Below are positions 2,457-38,986 of a stretch of 64,000 bases of DNA, in pieces. Every line of letters begins with the position of its first letter. Position 1 is the stretch's first letter. Source of the DNA: Rhizobiaceae bacterium (GTDB lineage: Bacteria > Pseudomonadota > Alphaproteobacteria > Rhizobiales > Rhizobiaceae). The stretch covers positions 5,562 through 69,561 of the forward strand of contig DASZUG010000055.1 in assembly GCA_035547755.1 (NCBI GenBank), in the 5' to 3' direction. A model generated the notes under the pieces. It made no database searches. It had not been told where the DNA came from and worked only from the letters and a program-made list of their open reading frames with translations. A program made the translations under genes and the position numbers.

Positions 2457-3765
2457 TCGCGCCGGGACGGACCGGTTGCGGCTCCTGCGACTGCAGAATG
2501 ATGCGGGTGATCGCATCCTCGTCGGCAGATTTTGCCGGGGCCGGCTTGGGAGGGAGACCGCCGAAATTATCGGCTCTGCCGCGCGGTGGAATGGTGGCAA
2601 TGCCTTCCCCCGTCAACTTCTCCATCGCCGTCTCGCCACCTGGCGCCGGTGTCACTGTCGCGCCGTCGAGGGCGCCGTCATCGTCCATTCCCTGATCCTT
2701 GAGCGAGATCGGCGGGGTTCGTTCCACCGGTCCCTCGCCGGTGGGGGCGGCGCCGAGGTTCGGGATGCCGGAAGGCAGGGATCCGATGTCGGGCGAAACC
2801 GCATCCCCGAGCAGGCGATTAAGATCCTTTTCGACATAAAAGGCTATTTTCGCCTTGCCCGCGCGCGAAAAATTAATCCCGTCATCCAGTCTGAGCCGCG
2901 TCGGCTGGCCGTTCACGTCCGGCCCAGTCAGCGTGAAGGCGCCGCTACCGTCGACGAAGCCGTCCCAAATGTCGACGAAGGCGCCTTTCTTCTCGTCGAC
3001 GCTGTTCTGATAGATGTCGTTCAAGGCCAGCATGTCGCTCGTCATCGATGCGGAGCGGAAAGCCGGTACACCGACCCAGACGAGCGGTATGTGACGATCA
3101 GCGAGGATTTTGGCGAACGCCTTCACCCGCTTCGTATATTCCACCACCCATTCGTCGGAACGGACAGCCTCGCTCTTGCCATCGACCGTGATCTGTTGCC
3201 GGTCGTTCGCTCCGATCATCATGACCACCACCGACGGCTTCACCGTGTCGAGCAGGGGGCCGATGCTCGCGTCCCAATCGTAGAAATCGGTGCGGACGAA
3301 GCCGGACGAGCCATTGGCCTCGTCGACGACCTTCACGCCTGGCGATTTGGCATAGGCGTCGGTCAGCCCGGCGGCCAGTTCGGAAGCAAGGAAATCGCCG
3401 ACCACCATGATCGTCCGGGCATTTGGAAGCTTTTCGACCTGATCCGACGAAGGAGGGGGAGCGGCCGTCCTCCTCGGCTGCGGTTTCTCTACTCGTCGCT
3501 GGGCGGGTGGCTGCATCCGCCTTCTCGGATAGGGTAGATACCACCGCTGCGATCGCTCGAAGGCCGGTGGCGCATTTTCGGCATGGGCGCTTGGAACGGT
3601 TCCGAGAAAAGCGATCGCCGCGAACAGCAAAGCGATCTTGGCAGCCGGCGCGCTTGGTGCCGCAATACGAAAAAGGCGGAGCAGGGCAGATGCACGATCC
3701 CATTTCCTTCCGCCGATAAGGCGCAGAGGGAGGAAGGCCGCTATCCGTCCATGCCGTTTTATCAT
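2428..3765 (-). CDS. SGNH/GDSL hydrolase family protein (DUF459-like), exported; start uncertain
   Basis: VVGDFLA block [13 protein letters not shown] block III, DDGINF block V; signal-like N-terminus; overlaps gltD 3' end by 29 bp. Confidence 0.8.
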
Positions 3766-4986
3766 TCACCTCTGTCTCAGGCTGATCAGCACTTTCTTGC
3801 TTGGATTGCCGTCCTGGGTTAGTCCCGCCTGCGCCTGGAACGCCTTGATGGCATCGCGGGAGCCGTCGCCGATCCGGCCGTCTATCTTGCCGTCATAATA
3901 ACCAAGCGCAAGCAGACGCTTCTGCAATTCCCGGCGCTCGTCGAAGCTCAGCTTGATGAAGGGGCGATCCCAATCCTGGACGAGGCCGCCATAACCGGCG
4001 ATCTGGTCGGCAAGCAAACCGACGGCAAGCGCATATCTGTCGGCATTATTGTATTTCTTGATGACAAAGAAATTCTTCAGCATCAAAAAGACCGGGCCGT
4101 TGCGGCCCTCCGGAAGTTTCAGAGCGGCCTGATCCAATCCGCGCGGAAAATCCTTGCCATTGGCTCGGGTCACGCCGAGCGCCGCCCATCGGTCAAGCGA
4201 TTCGAAGCCGGCGGGAAATTTTCGCCCGGCTGGAAGCTTCACCTCATAGCCCCAGGTCTTGCCGGTCTGCCATCCGTTGCGCGCCAGGAGATTGGCGGTC
4301 GTCGCCAGTGCGTCGGGAACCGATGTCCAGATGTCGCGCCGGCCATTGCCGTCCATATCGACGCCATAGATTTCATAGCTCGTCGGAATGAACTGCGTCT
4401 GCCCCATGGCCCCAGCCCATGAGCCGGTAAGGTGCCTCTCATCGATATCGCCGCGCTGCAGGATCTTGAGCGCCGCAATCAATTGCTTGCGGGCGAAGCT
4501 CGAATAACGCTTGCTGCCATAGCCAAGGGTCGCGAGCGAACGGATGACGTTGCGCATCACCTTGTCGTTCTTCAGCGTCTCTCCATAGTTCGACTCCATC
4601 GACCATATGGCGAGAAGAATGTAGCGGCTTACACCGTAGCGTTGTTCGATGCGGTCGAGCCAAGGCCGCCATTTTGCCGCCATGGCCTGGCCATCCGCGA
4701 TCGACTGCTCCTGGACGCGGTTATCGAAATAGTTCCAGACCGGCGCATTGAATTCCGGCTGGGCACGGGATTTTTCCAGCACTTCCGGATCCGGTTCGGT
4801 GACGTTGCGGAAAGCACGATCGAAGGTCGAGCGGGACACGCCATGAGAGAGCGCGACGCTGCGGAAGCTTGCAACCCAATGGCGGAAGCCTTGGTCTGCT
4901 TGCGCGGGCGTTCCGCCGGCGAGCGCTGCTATGAGAGCGGCGGCGAGAATCGGAGCGATACGTCTTGCGATGGATGAAGCGGACAT
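3766..4986 (-). CDS. Lytic murein transglycosylase (MltB/SLT_2 family) with C-terminal PG-binding domain
   Basis: AIWSMESNYG catalytic Glu, GSWAGAMGQTQFIPTSY, DMDGNGRRD EF-hand, ELQKRL..GYYDGKIDGRIG PG-binding domain. Confidence 0.93.
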   Translation of the reverse strand: MSASSIARRIAPILAAALIAALAGGTPAQADQGFRHWVASFRSVALSHGVSRSTFDRAFRNVTEPDPEVLEKSRAQPEFNAPVWNYFDNRVQEQSIADGQAMAAKWRPWLDRIEQRYGVSRYILLAIWSMESNYGETLKNDKVMRNVIRSLATLGYGSKRYSSFARKQLIAALKILQRGDIDERHLTGSWAGAMGQTQFIPTSYEIYGVDMDGNGRRDIWTSVPDALATTANLLARNGWQTGKTWGYEVKLPAGRKFPAGFESLDRWAALGVTRANGKDFPRGLDQAALKLPEGRNGPVFLMLKNFFVIKKYNNADRYALAVGLLADQIAGYGGLVQDWDRPFIKLSFDERRELQKRLLALGYYDGKIDGRIGDGSRDAIKAFQAQAGLTQDGNPSKKVLISLRQR

Positions 4987-32514: not shown

Positions 32515-33480
32515 ATGGCACAGGAGCATCACCACGGGCATTCCGATCATGGGCATCGCCATGATCACGCCCCCGGTCATCATCACCATGATCATGCCGG
32601 CGGCCATGTCCACGGGGGTAGCGACAAGAAACGTGTCCTTATCGCCGCCTGTCTTACGGGCGCTTTCATGGTCGCCGAGGCTGTGAGCGGCCTGCTTGTC
32701 GGCTCACTCGCGCTTTTGGCGGATGCCGGCCACATGCTGACAGATGCGGTGTCGCTCGGTTTTGCTTGGTACGCGTTCCATCTCGCCGAGCGTCCTGCGA
32801 CGCCCGCCCACACCTATGGTTTCGACCGGGTGAAAACGCTTGTCGCCTATAGCAACGGACTGGCGATCTTCTTCATCGGAGCCTGGATCGTCGTCGAGGC
32901 CATCGGGCGCTTTGCGTCGCCTGAGAAGGTTCTCGGCGTGCCCATGCTGATCGTTGCAGCCGTCGGTCTTGCCGTGAATATCGGCATATTCCTCGTCCTT
33001 CATGGCGGTGATCGCGAGAATCTGAACATGCGCGGCGCCATCATTCATGTTGCGGGCGACATGCTGGGATCGGTGGCGGCGCTTGTCGCCGCGGCGGTTA
33101 TCATCATGACGGGGTGGTATCCGATCGATCCTATACTTTCGGTGGTGGTTGCGGTGGTGATTTTCGCCGCCGCCGGCCGGCTGATGCGCGATGCTGGCCG
33201 GGTATTGCTCGAAGGCGTGCCGAGGAGCCTCGACCGCGACGAAATCGCGCGCGACCTGGCGAACAATATCCGTGGCGTAAAAGGCATCCATCACGTGCAT
33301 GTCTGGTCGCTTGATGGTTCCAAGAACATGGCCACGTTGCACGCTCTCCTCGAAGATGGGGCCGATCCCTATGAAGCGACCGTCGCCATCAAGGCCCGCC
33401 TTGCACAGAGCCATAAAATCGGCCATGCCACGGTGGAAACGGAATTCGGCCACTGCGCCGACGGCCGGGTGTTGCACTGA
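32515..33480 (+). CDS. Cation diffusion facilitator (CzcD/ZitB-like) with His-rich N-terminus
   Basis: SLALLADAGHMLTD, HTYGFDR, NMRGAIIHVAGD, HHVHVWSL, HATVE. Confidence 0.93.
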   Translation: MAQEHHHGHSDHGHRHDHAPGHHHHDHAGGHVHGGSDKKRVLIAACLTGAFMVAEAVSGLLVGSLALLADAGHMLTDAVSLGFAWYAFHLAERPATPAHTYGFDRVKTLVAYSNGLAIFFIGAWIVVEAIGRFASPEKVLGVPMLIVAAVGLAVNIGIFLVLHGGDRENLNMRGAIIHVAGDMLGSVAALVAAAVIIMTGWYPIDPILSVVVAVVIFAAAGRLMRDAGRVLLEGVPRSLDRDEIARDLANNIRGVKGIHHVHVWSLDGSKNMATLHALLEDGADPYEATVAIKARLAQSHKIGHATVETEFGHCADGRVLH

Positions 33481-34538: not shown

Positions 34539-35993
34539 TCACGCATCCTTGGCGAGGAGCGCTTCCGGCTTGACGGGCTCGAGCGTTTCGGCGCGAGGCA
34601 GCCGCAGTTCGGTGATCAGCCCGCCGCCCGGCCTGTTCGCAAGCCTGATATCGCCGCCAAAACTTCGCGCTATGGTGCGGGCGATAGTGAGGCCGAGACC
34701 AAAGCCGCCGGTTTCCCGGCTGCGTGATTCCTCCACCCTGGTAAAGGGCCGAAAAACGGCATCCAGCTTGGCCTGCGGGATACCGGGTCCTTCGTCGCGG
34801 ATGGTGAGCACGATGTCTCCCTCATCACGTGCAAGGCTCACATGGGCTTTGCCGCCATATGTCACAGCATTGTCGACCAGATTGGTGATGCAGCGCCGAA
34901 GCGCGATCGGCCGCCCGACGCAGACGAGGCCGCGCGAGGGGATGGTCTCTCCGTCGAAGGACACCTCCTTATAGGCATCCACGATCGAATCGACCAGGGA
35001 TCGCATATCGATGCGCTCGTCGGCCTCGTCCCTTACTTCGAAAGTGGCGAAATCCACCACCGAGCGCGAGATTGCCTCTATGTCCGAGAGATCATGGAGT
35101 AGGGAGGATTTGAGCTTCTTGTTGGTCAGGAGTTCCAGCCGCAATTTCATGCGGGTCAGCGGCGTGCGCAGGTCATGCGCAAGCGCTGCAGCCAGTTGTT
35201 CGCGATCCTCGACATAGTCGCGCAGCCGCGCCTGCATCGCGTTGACCACCCGTGCGGCGGATTTGTATTGCGGGCTGCCGCTCTCGGGCAGCGGAGGGCT
35301 TTTCAGATCCTCGCCCAGCCTTTTCACCGCGCTTTCGAGCAGGCGGTAGGGCGCCGTCAGCCCGCGAAGCGCCCAGATTGAAAGGACGACGACAAAAGCG
35401 GCGACCAATACCAGAAGCGCCAGCGTCCTTCCCGTCAGGAGTGGGCTGACCGGCGTCAGCGGCATGACGAAATTCAGCCATTGCCCGTCCTTGAATTCGA
35501 TGGACGCCAGAAGCCGAGCGCTTTGGGAAATGCTGGCGGCAAGGCGCAGGAACTCATGCTCGATCTGTCCGACATCCGGATCGGGGGTGAAGGCCGGCGG
35601 CTCCGTCGAAGATGCGTCGGCGGATTCCCGCCTGATCCTCGCTTCGACGACCCCGAACTTCGTCAAACGGGCGACGATATCGTCTTCCAGTTCGGCGAGA
35701 TCGTCGTCGGAGGGGATCGCCGTGCTGATCGCGGGCGTATCGGTAATCGTCACCACGAAGGCAGAATTCGTCAGCCGGGCGGCAAGCTGTTTGCGTTCCG
35801 CCGGGCTGAGGGAATTGAGAAGCTTCACCAGCGAGAACGCCCGGTCGCTAAGGCGGAAGAGTTCAAGCAAATTGTTGGAGGCGGCTCTTTCCCTGTTGAC
35901 GATGGAAAGCGTTGTCACCTGCGTGATCGCCAGTCCCGCGATGAGGATCAGCAGGAACCATGCGGGCAGGGTCTGGGGCAGGAACCGCCTCAT
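34539..35993 (-). CDS. Sensor histidine kinase (periplasmic sensor, HAMP, HisKA, HATPase; EnvZ-like)
   Basis: Two TMs, LAHDLRTPLTRM H-box, NLVDNA, DEGPGIP, SRSRETGGFGLGL. Confidence 0.95.
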   Translation of the reverse strand: MRRFLPQTLPAWFLLILIAGLAITQVTTLSIVNRERAASNNLLELFRLSDRAFSLVKLLNSLSPAERKQLAARLTNSAFVVTITDTPAISTAIPSDDDLAELEDDIVARLTKFGVVEARIRRESADASSTEPPAFTPDPDVGQIEHEFLRLAASISQSARLLASIEFKDGQWLNFVMPLTPVSPLLTGRTLALLVLVAAFVVVLSIWALRGLTAPYRLLESAVKRLGEDLKSPPLPESGSPQYKSAARVVNAMQARLRDYVEDREQLAAALAHDLRTPLTRMKLRLELLTNKKLKSSLLHDLSDIEAISRSVVDFATFEVRDEADERIDMRSLVDSIVDAYKEVSFDGETIPSRGLVCVGRPIALRRCITNLVDNAVTYGGKAHVSLARDEGDIVLTIRDEGPGIPQAKLDAVFRPFTRVEESRSRETGGFGLGLTIARTIARSFGGDIRLANRPGGGLITELRLPRAETLEPVKPEALLAKDA

Positions 35994-36706
35994 TCGATCG
36001 CTATTTCCGGCACGAACTGGTAGCCGCCGCCGCGCACCGTCAGGATCAGCTTGGGCGAACGGGGATCATCTTCCATCTTGCGGCGCAACCGGCTGACGAG
36101 AATGTCCACGCTGCGGTCATAGCCATATTCGTTGTCGTTGCCCGCCAGTTCCATCAACTGGTCGCGGGAAAGCACGCGTTGGGAACTCTTGACGAGCGCC
36201 TGCAGCAGATTGAACTCGGCGGTGGTCAGTTCCACGCGAACGTCGCCAGGCGCGATCAGCCGTCGGCGCGCGCAGTCGAGCGTCCAGCCGGCGAATTTGT
36301 AGATCTGCGGCTCCTGGCGCTGGGAAGGCCCCGCCATTGCAGGCCGACGGAGGACGGCGCGCACCCGCGCGAGAAGTTCGCGGGGATCGAAGGGCTTGGG
36401 CACATAGTCATCGGCCCCCATTTCCAGGCCCACCACCCGGTCAACCGTCTCCGTCACGGCCGTCAGCATGATGATGGGGACGCGCGACCATGCGCGGATT
36501 TCACGGCAGATATCGAGGCCGCTTTTGCCTGGCAGCATGACGTCGAGGATAAGCAGATCGACAGCAGCGTGCCGCATCGATGCCTGCATTTCCTCGGCAT
36601 CGCCGGCAACGCTGACGCGCAGGCCATGCTTCAGGAAAAACTCCTGCAGCAAGTCACGTATTTCCCTGTCGTCGTCAACGATCAGAATATGCGCGTCGGT
36701 CTTCAC
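35990..36706 (-). CDS. OmpR-family response regulator (GTG start inferred)
   Basis: ILIVDDD, LDVMLPG, GADDYVPKPF, LTTAEF, RSVDILVSRLRRK, TVRGGGY. Confidence 0.95.
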   Translation of the reverse strand: MKTDAHILIVDDDREIRDLLQEFFLKHGLRVSVAGDAEEMQASMRHAAVDLLILDVMLPGKSGLDICREIRAWSRVPIIMLTAVTETVDRVVGLEMGADDYVPKPFDPRELLARVRAVLRRPAMAGPSQRQEPQIYKFAGWTLDCARRRLIAPGDVRVELTTAEFNLLQALVKSSQRVLSRDQLMELAGNDNEYGYDRSVDILVSRLRRKMEDDPRSPKLILTVRGGGYQFVPEIAIE

Positions 36707-36815
36707 GCCGGTTTCCCTCACGATATACGAGGCCCGTTGCACCCACGGCAGTCGGCCGTAACCGCCAAGGGGCTTGAACATTGCTCATGGCGAATCTGCG
36801 GCAGGTCAAGCAGAA

Positions 36816-36876
36816 ACACAGATGCAACAAAATTCAACAAGCCAGAAAAATCCTCGACACGAATCGCTGCGATAAA
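36816..36876 (+). promoter_or_regulatory. Promoter P1: ACA-N8-ACAAAATT-N8-CAGAAAAA-N20-GATAAA
   Basis: Same motif and spacing as the copy at 37293-37353. Confidence 0.65.
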
Positions 36877-36972
36877 AGGCGCGGTCGGAGGGCCGTTTCG
36901 GACTTTTCCGCCATTTATCGCATGTTCAACACGTGGGCCCGGGTTTTACCCGCCCTACAAAAGGAAATGTCC

Positions 36973-37191
36973 ATGAAGAAGACCCTTTTCTCCGCGCTCG
37001 GCCTCGCCGTCGCCCTCGCCTTCTCCGCTCCGATGATCGGCAGCGCCGACGCCGCGACCGTCACGACCAAGACCGTCGTGAAGCATCCGGCTCACCATCA
37101 TCATCATCATGTTCGTCATCATCATGTCCGTCATCATCACCATCATCATGCGAAGCATGTCGTGGTGAAGAAGGTCGTGAAGAAGGGCTGA
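36973..37191 (+). CDS. Small secreted His-rich protein (45-aa mature, 17 His)
   Basis: SD AAGGA, Sec signal ending ADA, mature region HHHHHHVRHHHVRHHHHHH with no acidic residues. Confidence 0.8.
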   Translation: MKKTLFSALGLAVALAFSAPMIGSADAATVTTKTVVKHPAHHHHHHVRHHHVRHHHHHHAKHVVVKKVVKKG

Positions 37192-37221
37192 TTTCCGGCC
37201 GCTCCGGGAAGCATGTCAGTG

Positions 37222-37260
37222 AAGGCCGTTTCGTCTGCGAAAGCAACGGAGCGGCCTTTC
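37222..37260 (+). terminator. Probable terminator after His-rich gene
   Basis: AAGGCCGTTTCGT/ACGGAGCGGCCTT stem with short T tail. Confidence 0.5.
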
Positions 37261-37292
37261 CATGCCGGGCATCCGCCCGTCTCGCCGATGCT

Positions 37293-37353
37293 ACATTCCG
37301 GAAACAAAATTAAGCAGTTCAGAAAAACGCGCGCAAAACAGATTGCCCATAGT
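37293..37353 (+). promoter_or_regulatory. Promoter P2: ACA-N8-ACAAAATT-N8-CAGAAAAA-N20-CATAGT
   Basis: Duplicate of the P1 motif with identical spacing. Confidence 0.65.
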
Positions 37354-37387
37354 GGCATGTACGGTGTCAGGCGTCCGAAAGACTGAA

Positions 37388-37684
37388 ATGCGTGAACTCA
37401 TAATTGTCATCGCCGCCTTGCTTTGCGCCAGCGTTTCGACCGCAAGTCCGGTCACACCGCGGCCGACCAAAAGAGTGATGATCACGCGCATCCAGCGCTG
37501 TGAGGACATGCAACGTCAATTCAATCACGCAATCTCGCAACACGCCAAGGCCAAGCGAGCCGCCGAGGCGAGAGCACTTCAGAAAAAAGCCCAGAGATAC
37601 TGTGCCGGCAAAAGGCAGGCGCAGGGTATCCGGGCCTATGCGGAAGCACTGAAGCTGCTTGGGGTGCAGCCGATCGACCGATGA
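37388..37684 (+). CDS. Small secreted basic helical protein with two mature Cys
   Basis: Hydrophobic N-terminus, RCEDMQRQFNHAI...RYCAGK...LLGVQP. Confidence 0.65.
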   Translation: MRELIIVIAALLCASVSTASPVTPRPTKRVMITRIQRCEDMQRQFNHAISQHAKAKRAAEARALQKKAQRYCAGKRQAQGIRAYAEALKLLGVQPIDR

Positions 37685-37734
37685 GCGGAAGCATCTTTTC
37701 CTGGCTCGCAAACTCAATGAAGGAAACCCACATC

Positions 37735-37959
37735 ATGAAAAAGACCCTCCTTTCCGCGCTCGGCCTCGCCGTCGCCCTCGCTTTCTCGGTTCCGATGATC
37801 GCCCCGGCCAATGCGGCCGCTGCTGCTACGGCGACCACGACCGCCAAGAAGCCGATGGCCAAGAAGGCCACCCACAAGAAGGTCGTGCACAAGAAGGCGA
37901 CCCACAAGAAAGCCGCCCACAAGAAAATGGCGAAAAAGCCGGCCGCCAAGAAGAGCTGA
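37735..37959 (+). CDS. Small secreted Lys/His/Ala-rich protein with KKxxx repeats (Asr/histone H1-like composition)
   Basis: SD AAGGA, signal peptide 20/22 aa identical to the 36973 gene, KKATH/KKVVH/KKATH/KKAAH 15-bp tandem repeats. Confidence 0.82.
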   Translation: MKKTLLSALGLAVALAFSVPMIAPANAAAAATATTTAKKPMAKKATHKKVVHKKATHKKAAHKKMAKKPAAKKS

Positions 37960-38015
37960 GCCGCGCGGACGAATTCGCGGTTAGTGCGCCACAGAGCGCA
38001 TTTCTAGGCCGACTC

Positions 38016-38060
38016 AAGACCGTTCCAAGCCGCCAAGGCGGCGAGGGCGGTCTTTTTTTT
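38016..38060 (+). terminator. Intrinsic terminator
   Basis: AAGACCG..GCCGCC-AA-GGCGGC..CGGTCTT followed by a long T run. Confidence 0.75.
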
Positions 38061-38194
38061 GTTCGGACTGCGAGGCAATGACAGGATCGTTGGTTCTCCG
38101 GGTCGATCCTGACCGCAGATCACCCGCCCTTGACAGATGGAGCCGAACACCACTCAATACTTGGCCTACCGGCCGGGCCACTAGGACAGTAGAC

Positions 38195-38986
38195 GTGAGG
38201 GGCGAGCGAAATCTCAACATATTGGCGCAGGTGCCGGATCTGCGTCACGGTGTCGAGCGGCGTTCAGTAAAGGATATCGTATGCGAAAAGCTTGCGCTCC
38301 TTATCGGTACAGGCGTGCTGCAGATCGGTGATCAACTCCCGGGTGAACGCGAGCTTGCTTCAGCGTTCGGAGTGAGCCGCGAAACCGTGCGCGGCGCTGT
38401 GCAGGTTCTCGCCTTGCGCGGAATCATCGACGTTTCCCACGGCGCCAGGTCGCGCATCGTCAGCACCGAGGTCGGATCGTTGCAAGCGGGCATCATGCCC
38501 CTGCACGACATTGATCACTATGGGATAGAGGACGTCCACGCCGCCAGGCTTCTGATCGAAGGCCAGGTGGTGGCGGACGCGGCGGAAAACATAGATGACG
38601 CGACCCTTGCCGCGCTTGACCGGTCTTTGATCGAACAGGAAAGGGCCAAGCACGACCCTCTGCGCTTCCTGATCTTCGACCGCGAGTTCCATAGCGCGAT
38701 CTATCATGCGGCATGCAACCAGCTGCTCGCGGATCTGGTGACCGATCTCTATGCCTATATGATGGAACACCGCCGCTCGGCCATGTCGCGTCCCGGCGCG
38801 ATCGAGGCGAGCCGCGCCGATCATCATGCGATTGTCAAAGCTCTACGGGCCAGAGACAGGGATGCGACGATAGCGGCATTTGGCCGTCACCTCGAGCGCA
38901 TATATCGTTCGACGAAAACCGTTCTGACAGATAGGAAGGGTGGCCGCCTGCCTGAGGCGAAGGCTGCAAATTCGAAGGGAGGTTGA
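38195..38986 (+). CDS. GntR/FadR family regulator (FCD); start uncertain
   Basis: GDQLPGERELASAFGVSRETVRGA HTH, DREFHSAI, HHAIV.AL. Confidence 0.9.
   Translation: MRGERNLNILAQVPDLRHGVERRSVKDIVCEKLALLIGTGVLQIGDQLPGERELASAFGVSRETVRGAVQVLALRGIIDVSHGARSRIVSTEVGSLQAGIMPLHDIDHYGIEDVHAARLLIEGQVVADAAENIDDATLAALDRSLIEQERAKHDPLRFLIFDREFHSAIYHAACNQLLADLVTDLYAYMMEHRRSAMSRPGAIEASRADHHAIVKALRARDRDATIAAFGRHLERIYRSTKTVLTDRKGGRLPEAKAANSKGG

Follow-up and report, generated by a model that had tools for sequence, protein, structure and literature searches.

Predicted operator of an uncharacterised OmpR-family two-component system upstream of small secreted proteins in Rhizobiaceae

The sequence analysed (the window) is a stretch of 64,000 nt from a genome of an uncultured Rhizobiaceae genus, corresponding to contig C55:5562-69561 of a 4.6-Mb assembly. 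The locus consists of a sensor histidine kinase gene and a response regulator gene on the minus strand and, divergent from these, three genes for small secreted proteins on the plus strand. The latter form two units, here named after their promoters P1 and P2, each preceded by a predicted operator array and a -10-like hexamer (Table 1). About 1 kb beyond the kinase, past an intervening short-chain dehydrogenase gene, the plus strand encodes a cation-diffusion transporter that is ZitB-like and His-rich at its N-terminus (32515-33480).

Table 1. Features of the locus, with positions numbered from the first nucleotide of the window.
Feature	Position	Strand	Details and basis
Sensor histidine kinase, 484 aa	34539..35993	-	Two membrane-spanning segments, ~158-aa periplasmic domain, HAMP (weak), HisKA, HATPase
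OmpR/PhoB-family response regulator, 238 aa	35990..36706	-	Pfam Response_reg and Trans_reg_C
P1 operator array (predicted)	36813..36866	+	Repeat starts 36813, 36824, 36834, 36845, 36856; contains the 36816-36850 motif
P1 -10-like hexamer GATAAA	36871..36876	+	20 nt after GAAAAA; predicted start near 36883
Secreted His-rich protein, 72 aa	36973..37191	+	Signal peptide, 17 His; ORF and translation
Stem-loop after His-rich gene, weak terminator	37221..37259	+	Short U run; fold -40.8 kcal/mol, z -3.2
P2 operator array (predicted)	37290..37343	+	Repeat starts 37290, 37301, 37311, 37322, 37333; contains the 37293-37327 motif
P2 -10-like hexamer CATAGT	37348..37353	+	Predicted start near 37360
Secreted 98-aa protein	37388..37684	+	Two invariant Cys; C-terminal AQGIR...ALKxLG.xP conserved (alignments)
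Secreted Lys/His-rich protein, 74 aa	37735..37959	+	ORF and translation
Intrinsic terminator closing the second unit	38016..38060	+	GC-rich stem and 8 U; fold analysis

Both proteins of the two-component system were searched against Pfam and NCBIfam. In the kinase, HisKA and HATPase_c were above their cut-offs, HAMP scored 17.0 bits against a cut-off of 25, and the best NCBIfam match was EnvZ (170 bits, cut-off 415). The periplasmic domain contains an acidic motif, DDxLAELED (residues 95-105, 35679-35711, minus strand), which is retained by at least 90% of the orthologues, of which 80 distinct ones were compared, and recalls the acidic patch with which PhoQ binds cations. The GTG start of the regulator at 36706 lines up with the ATG of its relatives in the alignment. 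Its two domains, PF00072 (103 bits) and PF00486 (84.5 bits), were both above their cut-offs, which places it in the OmpR/PhoB family. The best NCBIfam match, and the top curated match, was OmpR (NF007005) at 248.1 bits, below the cut-off of 331; PhoB (TIGR02154) scored 190.1 bits (cut-off 296.2) and RstA (NF007977) 165.5 bits (cut-off 330). Since all three scores lie below their cut-offs, the specificity of the regulator is read from similarity only.

Nothing meaningful was returned for any of the three small proteins by Pfam or NCBIfam. The His/Lys-rich proteins gave no match to the Asr family even at E-values up to 10, and the weak matches obtained were of low complexity only. The signal peptides of the His-rich protein (36973-37050) and the Lys-rich protein (37735-37812) are nearly identical (MKKTL.SALGLAVALAFS), and a local duplication has therefore taken place. 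The mature parts are unlike, with poly-His in the former versus KKxxH repeats in the latter. An AlphaFold model of the 98-aa protein was a three-helix bundle (pLDDT 76.5) with a confident core. It had no significant match to the PDB in Foldseek, the best being a designed helical bundle with an E-value of 2.1. No motif of its own was found for the 74-aa Lys/His-rich gene in pattern and matrix searches, and this gene is probably co-transcribed with the preceding 98-aa gene. The stem-loop between the two units was not called by a consensus terminator scan, and an Rfam scan of 36500-38200 gave two sub-threshold archaeal snoRNA matches attributable to chance and nothing else.

The two units share the motif ACA-N8-ACAAAATT-N8-CAGAAAAA (35 nt), which was read from the sequence at 36816-36850 and 37293-37327. 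In both copies the gap between the end of the motif and the -10-like hexamer is exactly 20 nt. When up to three mismatches were allowed, a pattern search of the window gave these two copies and no others, and the pattern was absent from 100 dinucleotide-preserving shuffles. With up to two mismatches, a 24-nt core was found at the same two places only in the whole 4.6-Mb assembly. A weight matrix of 28 nt was derived from orthologous sites and gave 44.1 bits for P1 and 37.8 bits for P2, with the runner-up among 9.2 million positions at 17.5 bits. This weak third-best match lies outside the window (G000:C39:68403). The sequence flanking the P1 copy is unrelated to that flanking the P2 copy. The motif is real and far beyond chance. 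The two copies and their exact spacing to a -10-like hexamer, as described in the first-pass annotation, were thus borne out, and the genome scan for more copies that it had proposed recovered these two alone. Its remark that neither promoter has a good -35 agrees with a consensus scan of 36600-38100, in which no sigma-70 consensus promoter was found. The 11-bp periodicity of ACA that it had reported holds for the first two ACAs of each copy (36816/36827 and 37293/37304), but the next step is 10 bp (ACA 36837; GCA 37314).

Conservation was examined within the genus. Kinase orthologues (64-96% identity) were found in nine of nine other genus members searched, both motif copies were present at equivalent places in nine of nine other species searched, and orthologues of the His-rich protein come after the P1 motif across the genus. 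In an alignment of the regulator-proximal intergenic region from ten species, the flanks could not be aligned and the motif blocks stood out as islands. The first ACA, given in the first-pass annotation as part of the motif, is retained in the P2 copy but loses conservation in the P1 copy of the more distant species. In one species (G006; L005 ~3700-3890), a MITE-like insertion of ~190 bp with internal inverted repeats separates the start of the regulator gene from the P1 motif; none of the other nine loci has it. This locus retains an intact motif at an unchanged distance from the -10, which indicates that the motif is positioned relative to the plus-strand -10 and not to the regulator gene. 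For a promoter of the regulator-kinase operon, nothing conserved genus-wide was found in the intergenic alignment; a CTTGAC-like minus-strand -35 at ~36805-36810 is kept in the three closest relatives only.

The repeat register of both arrays was set by cross-genus comparison. The element consists of five repeats (GnnAC, GnnAC, nnnCA, GAAAA and GnnAn) with starts spaced 11, 10, 11 and 11 bp, and this register was seen in ~20 sites from several genera. The consensus of the repeats by genus is G[ACT][AT]AC, G[AC][AT]AC, C[AT][AG]CA, GAAAA and G[AC][AC]A[ACG]. The -10 (consensus CATAAC) begins 15 bp past the start of the fifth repeat, 4 nt past the end of the array. Among 90 distinct sites, 10 matrix positions are invariant, the -10 stands at a fixed distance with A at its second position in 89, and a -35 was found at none. 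The invariant positions include a G and an A inside the 20 nt that had been annotated as a spacer. The motif of the first-pass annotation is therefore part of a longer element, with five phased repeats of which the fifth lies in the former spacer. With the -10 placed at -12 to -7, the array would extend from ~-70 to ~-17 and transcription would start at about 36883 and 37360, the positions given in the first-pass annotation. All repeats are A-rich and in helical phase, in a genome of 62% GC. Repeats 4 and 5 are without the C of GnnAC and cover the -35 region and the spacer, and may instead serve as A-tracts that bend the DNA or mark a position of repression. Direct head-to-tail repeats about one helical turn apart are as expected of an OmpR/PhoB-type operator, and a recognisable -10, no -35 and a predicted activator site in its place are as expected of a class II-like promoter.

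Distribution beyond the genus was determined in a family sample of 151 genomes. A strict pattern of the invariant core matched in 8 of the 151, and a reversed control pattern in none. In six of these eight genomes an orthologous regulator (73-81% identity) and the kinase adjoin the match, and the gene downstream codes for either a secreted poly-His protein or a 98-aa protein orthologue. The remaining two matches, which have no such system nearby, scored -0.8 and 24.9 bits, the latter off consensus. The 24.9-bit look-alike (L018, G154:C104:4922-4945) lies near a fragment of a distantly related kinase (25% identity) and could be due to chance or belong to a related system. A kinase search of the same sample yielded an orthologue in nine genomes, and the element adjoins it in all nine; the 142 sampled genomes without a kinase orthologue contained no consensus-like copy. 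Three kinase-bearing genomes lacking the strict pattern carry recognisable variants in the same place. At the most divergent locus (L114), GAAAAA is followed after exactly 20 nt by CATAGT, the same hexamer as in P2. The Lys/His-rich protein was found in eight of the nine genomes with the two-component system, with one doubtful match elsewhere. The sample held no genome with the cargo but lacking the system by which the effects of co-occurrence and co-inheritance could be told apart. Motif, two-component system and cargo are physically linked in most genomes, and co-occurrence therefore partly reflects co-inheritance.

A wider collection was scanned with an alignment of the 98-aa protein, yielding 194 relatives, mostly from Mesorhizobium. 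The best 80 of these were analysed as loci; they were mostly from Mesorhizobium, with Aminobacter, 'Brucella sp. IR073' and other Rhizobiaceae assemblies. A divergent regulator (70-96% identity) and kinase were present in ~70 of the best 80 loci, with a matrix match of 25-50 bits ~120 nt upstream of the 98-aa-type gene. The system was found in every named Mesorhizobium locus retrieved, in Aminobacter and in the uncultured Rhizobiaceae genus. The element was always upstream of genes for small secreted proteins, which were His-rich, Lys/His-rich or of the 97/98-aa three-helix type.

Operator sites are few. This genome has two, five others have between one and three each, and the control gave no match. 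Three copies on three contigs were found in a 6.8-Mb genome of the family (G066), where the genes behind them encode a homologue of the 98-aa protein, a poly-His protein of 70 aa and a His/Lys protein of 113 aa carrying the same signal peptide. The unlinked His-rich and Lys-rich homologues each have their own operator (L121 and L123), which shows the cargo to be conserved even when unlinked. In Mesorhizobium, second paralogues of the 98-aa gene are preceded at ~130 nt by an operator of four repeats whose period is strictly 11 bp (L054, L062, L065, L068, L075, L084, L098 and L107). These operators do not adjoin a two-component system. They have a near-consensus TAnAAT as the -10, and the 20 nt from GAAAAA are retained. 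The variant confirms the identity of the -10 hexamer, shows that the array evolves in units of one repeat, and suggests that one regulon contains promoters of graded classes.

The DNA-binding domain of the regulator was compared with solved structures. The nearest was one unnamed regulator, followed by OmpR (E ~2e-17) and then RstA. In the alignment, the recognition helix has R, V/I and R in common with OmpR at intervals of four residues; the corresponding residues of RstA, Arg199, Val203 and Arg207, make base contacts (PMC4117788). Orthologues with an overall identity of 70-96% share an invariant helix, DRS[VI]DIL[VI]SRLRRK, which appears matched by the conserved DNA motif. The first-pass annotation had drawn a comparison with the RstA box, but OmpR is the closer comparator. 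Its assignment of the motif as the predicted operator of the adjacent regulator is supported by the conservation islands, the fixed geometry, the co-occurrence, the unlinked copies and the OmpR-like helix.

From the OmpR-nearest DNA-binding domain and the invariant recognition helix, the best reading of the element is an OmpR/PhoB-type activator array that replaces the -35. It is probable, as judged from sequence, that the phosphorylated regulator binds this array head-to-tail and activates two promoters that lack a -35. A signal would be sensed by the kinase through its periplasmic domain, leading to phosphorylation of the regulator, which would then occupy the array head-to-tail. Within the array, two GAAAA-type repeats come after two to three half-sites of an OmpR-like GnnAC/nnACA type. 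The bound regulator would recruit RNA polymerase to the -35-less promoters, in the manner of PhoB on pho boxes and of OmpR on porin promoters. The output would be the His-rich secreted peptide from the first unit and the three-helix and Lys-rich secreted proteins from the second. That the bound protein is this regulator, and that its effect is activation and not repression, is inferred. Due to the poly-His and poly-Lys cargo, envelope, metal or acid stress may be guessed as the inducing signal, a guess that is weakly founded. A further-reaching version would have the regulator polymerise on five phased sites to ~-17 and fully replace the contacts of sigma region 4, with the secreted His/Lys polycations acting back on DDxLAELED of the kinase; the whole would be a homeostat for periplasmic polycations or metals, complete in itself and specific to the Mesorhizobium clade. 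This version is considered unlikely.

Several known systems were compared. An OmpR site measures 20 bp and is made up of two sub-elements of 10 bp, for instance TTTACATTTT and GTAACACATA, and such sites are occupied in tandem (PMC3050692). The sub-elements are of the TTTACA/GTAACA type, and at ompF and ompC (E. coli, Yersinia) the nnnACA half-sites lie head-to-tail upstream of weak promoters, much as here (PMC3050692). Unlike OmpR sites, with their period of 10 bp, the present arrays have steps of 11, 10, 11 and 11 bp and continue through the -35 into the spacer; the regulon consists of two promoters of tiny secreted proteins instead of porins. Pho boxes are direct repeats with an 11-bp period that replace the -35, end a few bp before the -10 and make the promoter activator-dependent. 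In period and in position in place of the -35, the arrays are nearer to the pho box than to OmpR sites, but the half-site sequence is unlike and nothing ties this regulator to phosphate. Asr is basic and His/Lys-rich, like the cargo described here. RstA, also of the OmpR family, has a tandem TACA box and activates asr, which encodes a small exported protein (PMC4117788). RstB/RstA differs in having two repeats, compared with five.

The gene layout resembles, by analogy, other systems with a periplasmic cargo or feedback protein. In cpxP-cpxRA and zraP-zraSR, the gene of a small periplasmic protein is divergent from a two-component system and directly controlled by its regulator. The 98-aa protein differs from CpxP, Spy and ZraP in having no sequence-family or significant fold match, and was not assigned to them. 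In Sinorhizobium meliloti, FeuP has the candidate site TTCA-N7-TTCA, and feuN is co-transcribed with feuPQ (PMC3616915). FeuNPQ, too, is an OmpR-type system of an alphaproteobacterium and includes a small periplasmic modulator. Identity with FeuPQ was rejected, as TTCA-N7-TTCA is absent from both promoters and the small genes are divergent here, not co-transcribed. A Zn/Cd transcriptome is available for two Mesorhizobium strains that carry the locus, and the metal-induced two-component system in it adjoins degQ/glnE (PMC3668242), so it appears to differ from the system described here.

Other explanations of the array were weighed against activation by the adjacent regulator. The same regulator could bind the array and repress, with repeats 4 and 5 blocking RNA polymerase and the genes being on when the system is off. 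The array does reach ~-17, 4 nt short of the -10, so that repeats 4 and 5 overlie the core promoter, and the near-consensus -10 (TAnAAT) of the second paralogues makes some basal activity conceivable. Repression is nevertheless quite unlikely, given that none of the 90 sites has a -35, which is the usual mark of activator dependence, and that PhoB, whose pho boxes stand in for the -35, acts as an activator at a similar location. Alternatively, the neighbouring regulator could be unrelated and the array read by another factor, or the five phased A-tracts could be curved DNA bound by a nucleoid protein. The A-rich, helically phased repeats in a 62% GC genome would fit curvature, and the link to the regulator is one of adjacency and co-occurrence only. 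However, the invariant G and C inside the repeats argue for base-specific reading, copies number just one to three per genome, invariably in front of cargo genes of the same types, and the search of the 142 sampled genomes that lack the system did not turn up the element. The half-site also resembles OmpR sub-elements, and the regulator has an OmpR-like DNA-binding domain. Another factor or curvature was therefore judged improbable, slightly more so than repression.

The blocks could also be the -35 and -10 of an ECF-type sigma promoter, GAAAC-N16-GAAAA, as repeats 2 and 4 are separated by 16 nt and GAAAC resembles some ECF -35 elements. The four-repeat variant contradicts this alternative sigma factor reading, because repeat 2 is there 6 nt from GAAAA while the 20 nt to TAnAAT are kept; no sigma factor gene was found among ORFs of at least 90 aa in window positions 29.2-44.5 kb. 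An ECF-type promoter is thus very improbable. Two other sigma factor signatures were tried and rejected: for sigma-54 (GG/GC at -24/-12) the bases are unfit and unconserved by eye, and the EcfG pattern (GGAAC-N16-CGTT) is neither present nor conserved. It is hardly credible that the two copies are a functionless, neutral remnant of local duplication. The His-rich and Lys-rich genes do share a signal peptide, but the flanks of the two copies are unrelated, and both copies are kept where the kinases are only 57-69% identical and the neighbouring intergenic DNA cannot be aligned. Activation by the adjacent OmpR-family regulator was therefore retained as the preferred reading.

The element is a well-supported candidate for the previously undescribed operator of an uncharacterised OmpR-family system. 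This system is common to the uncultured Rhizobiaceae genus, Mesorhizobium and Aminobacter, and its occurrence in Mesorhizobium makes it directly testable in cultured strains. The kind of mechanism proposed is that of a textbook bacterial switch. What is gained for the two-component system is a precise predicted operator and promoter geometry, together with a very small predicted regulon of one to three promoters that would serve tiny poly-His and poly-Lys secreted proteins and a three-helix protein.
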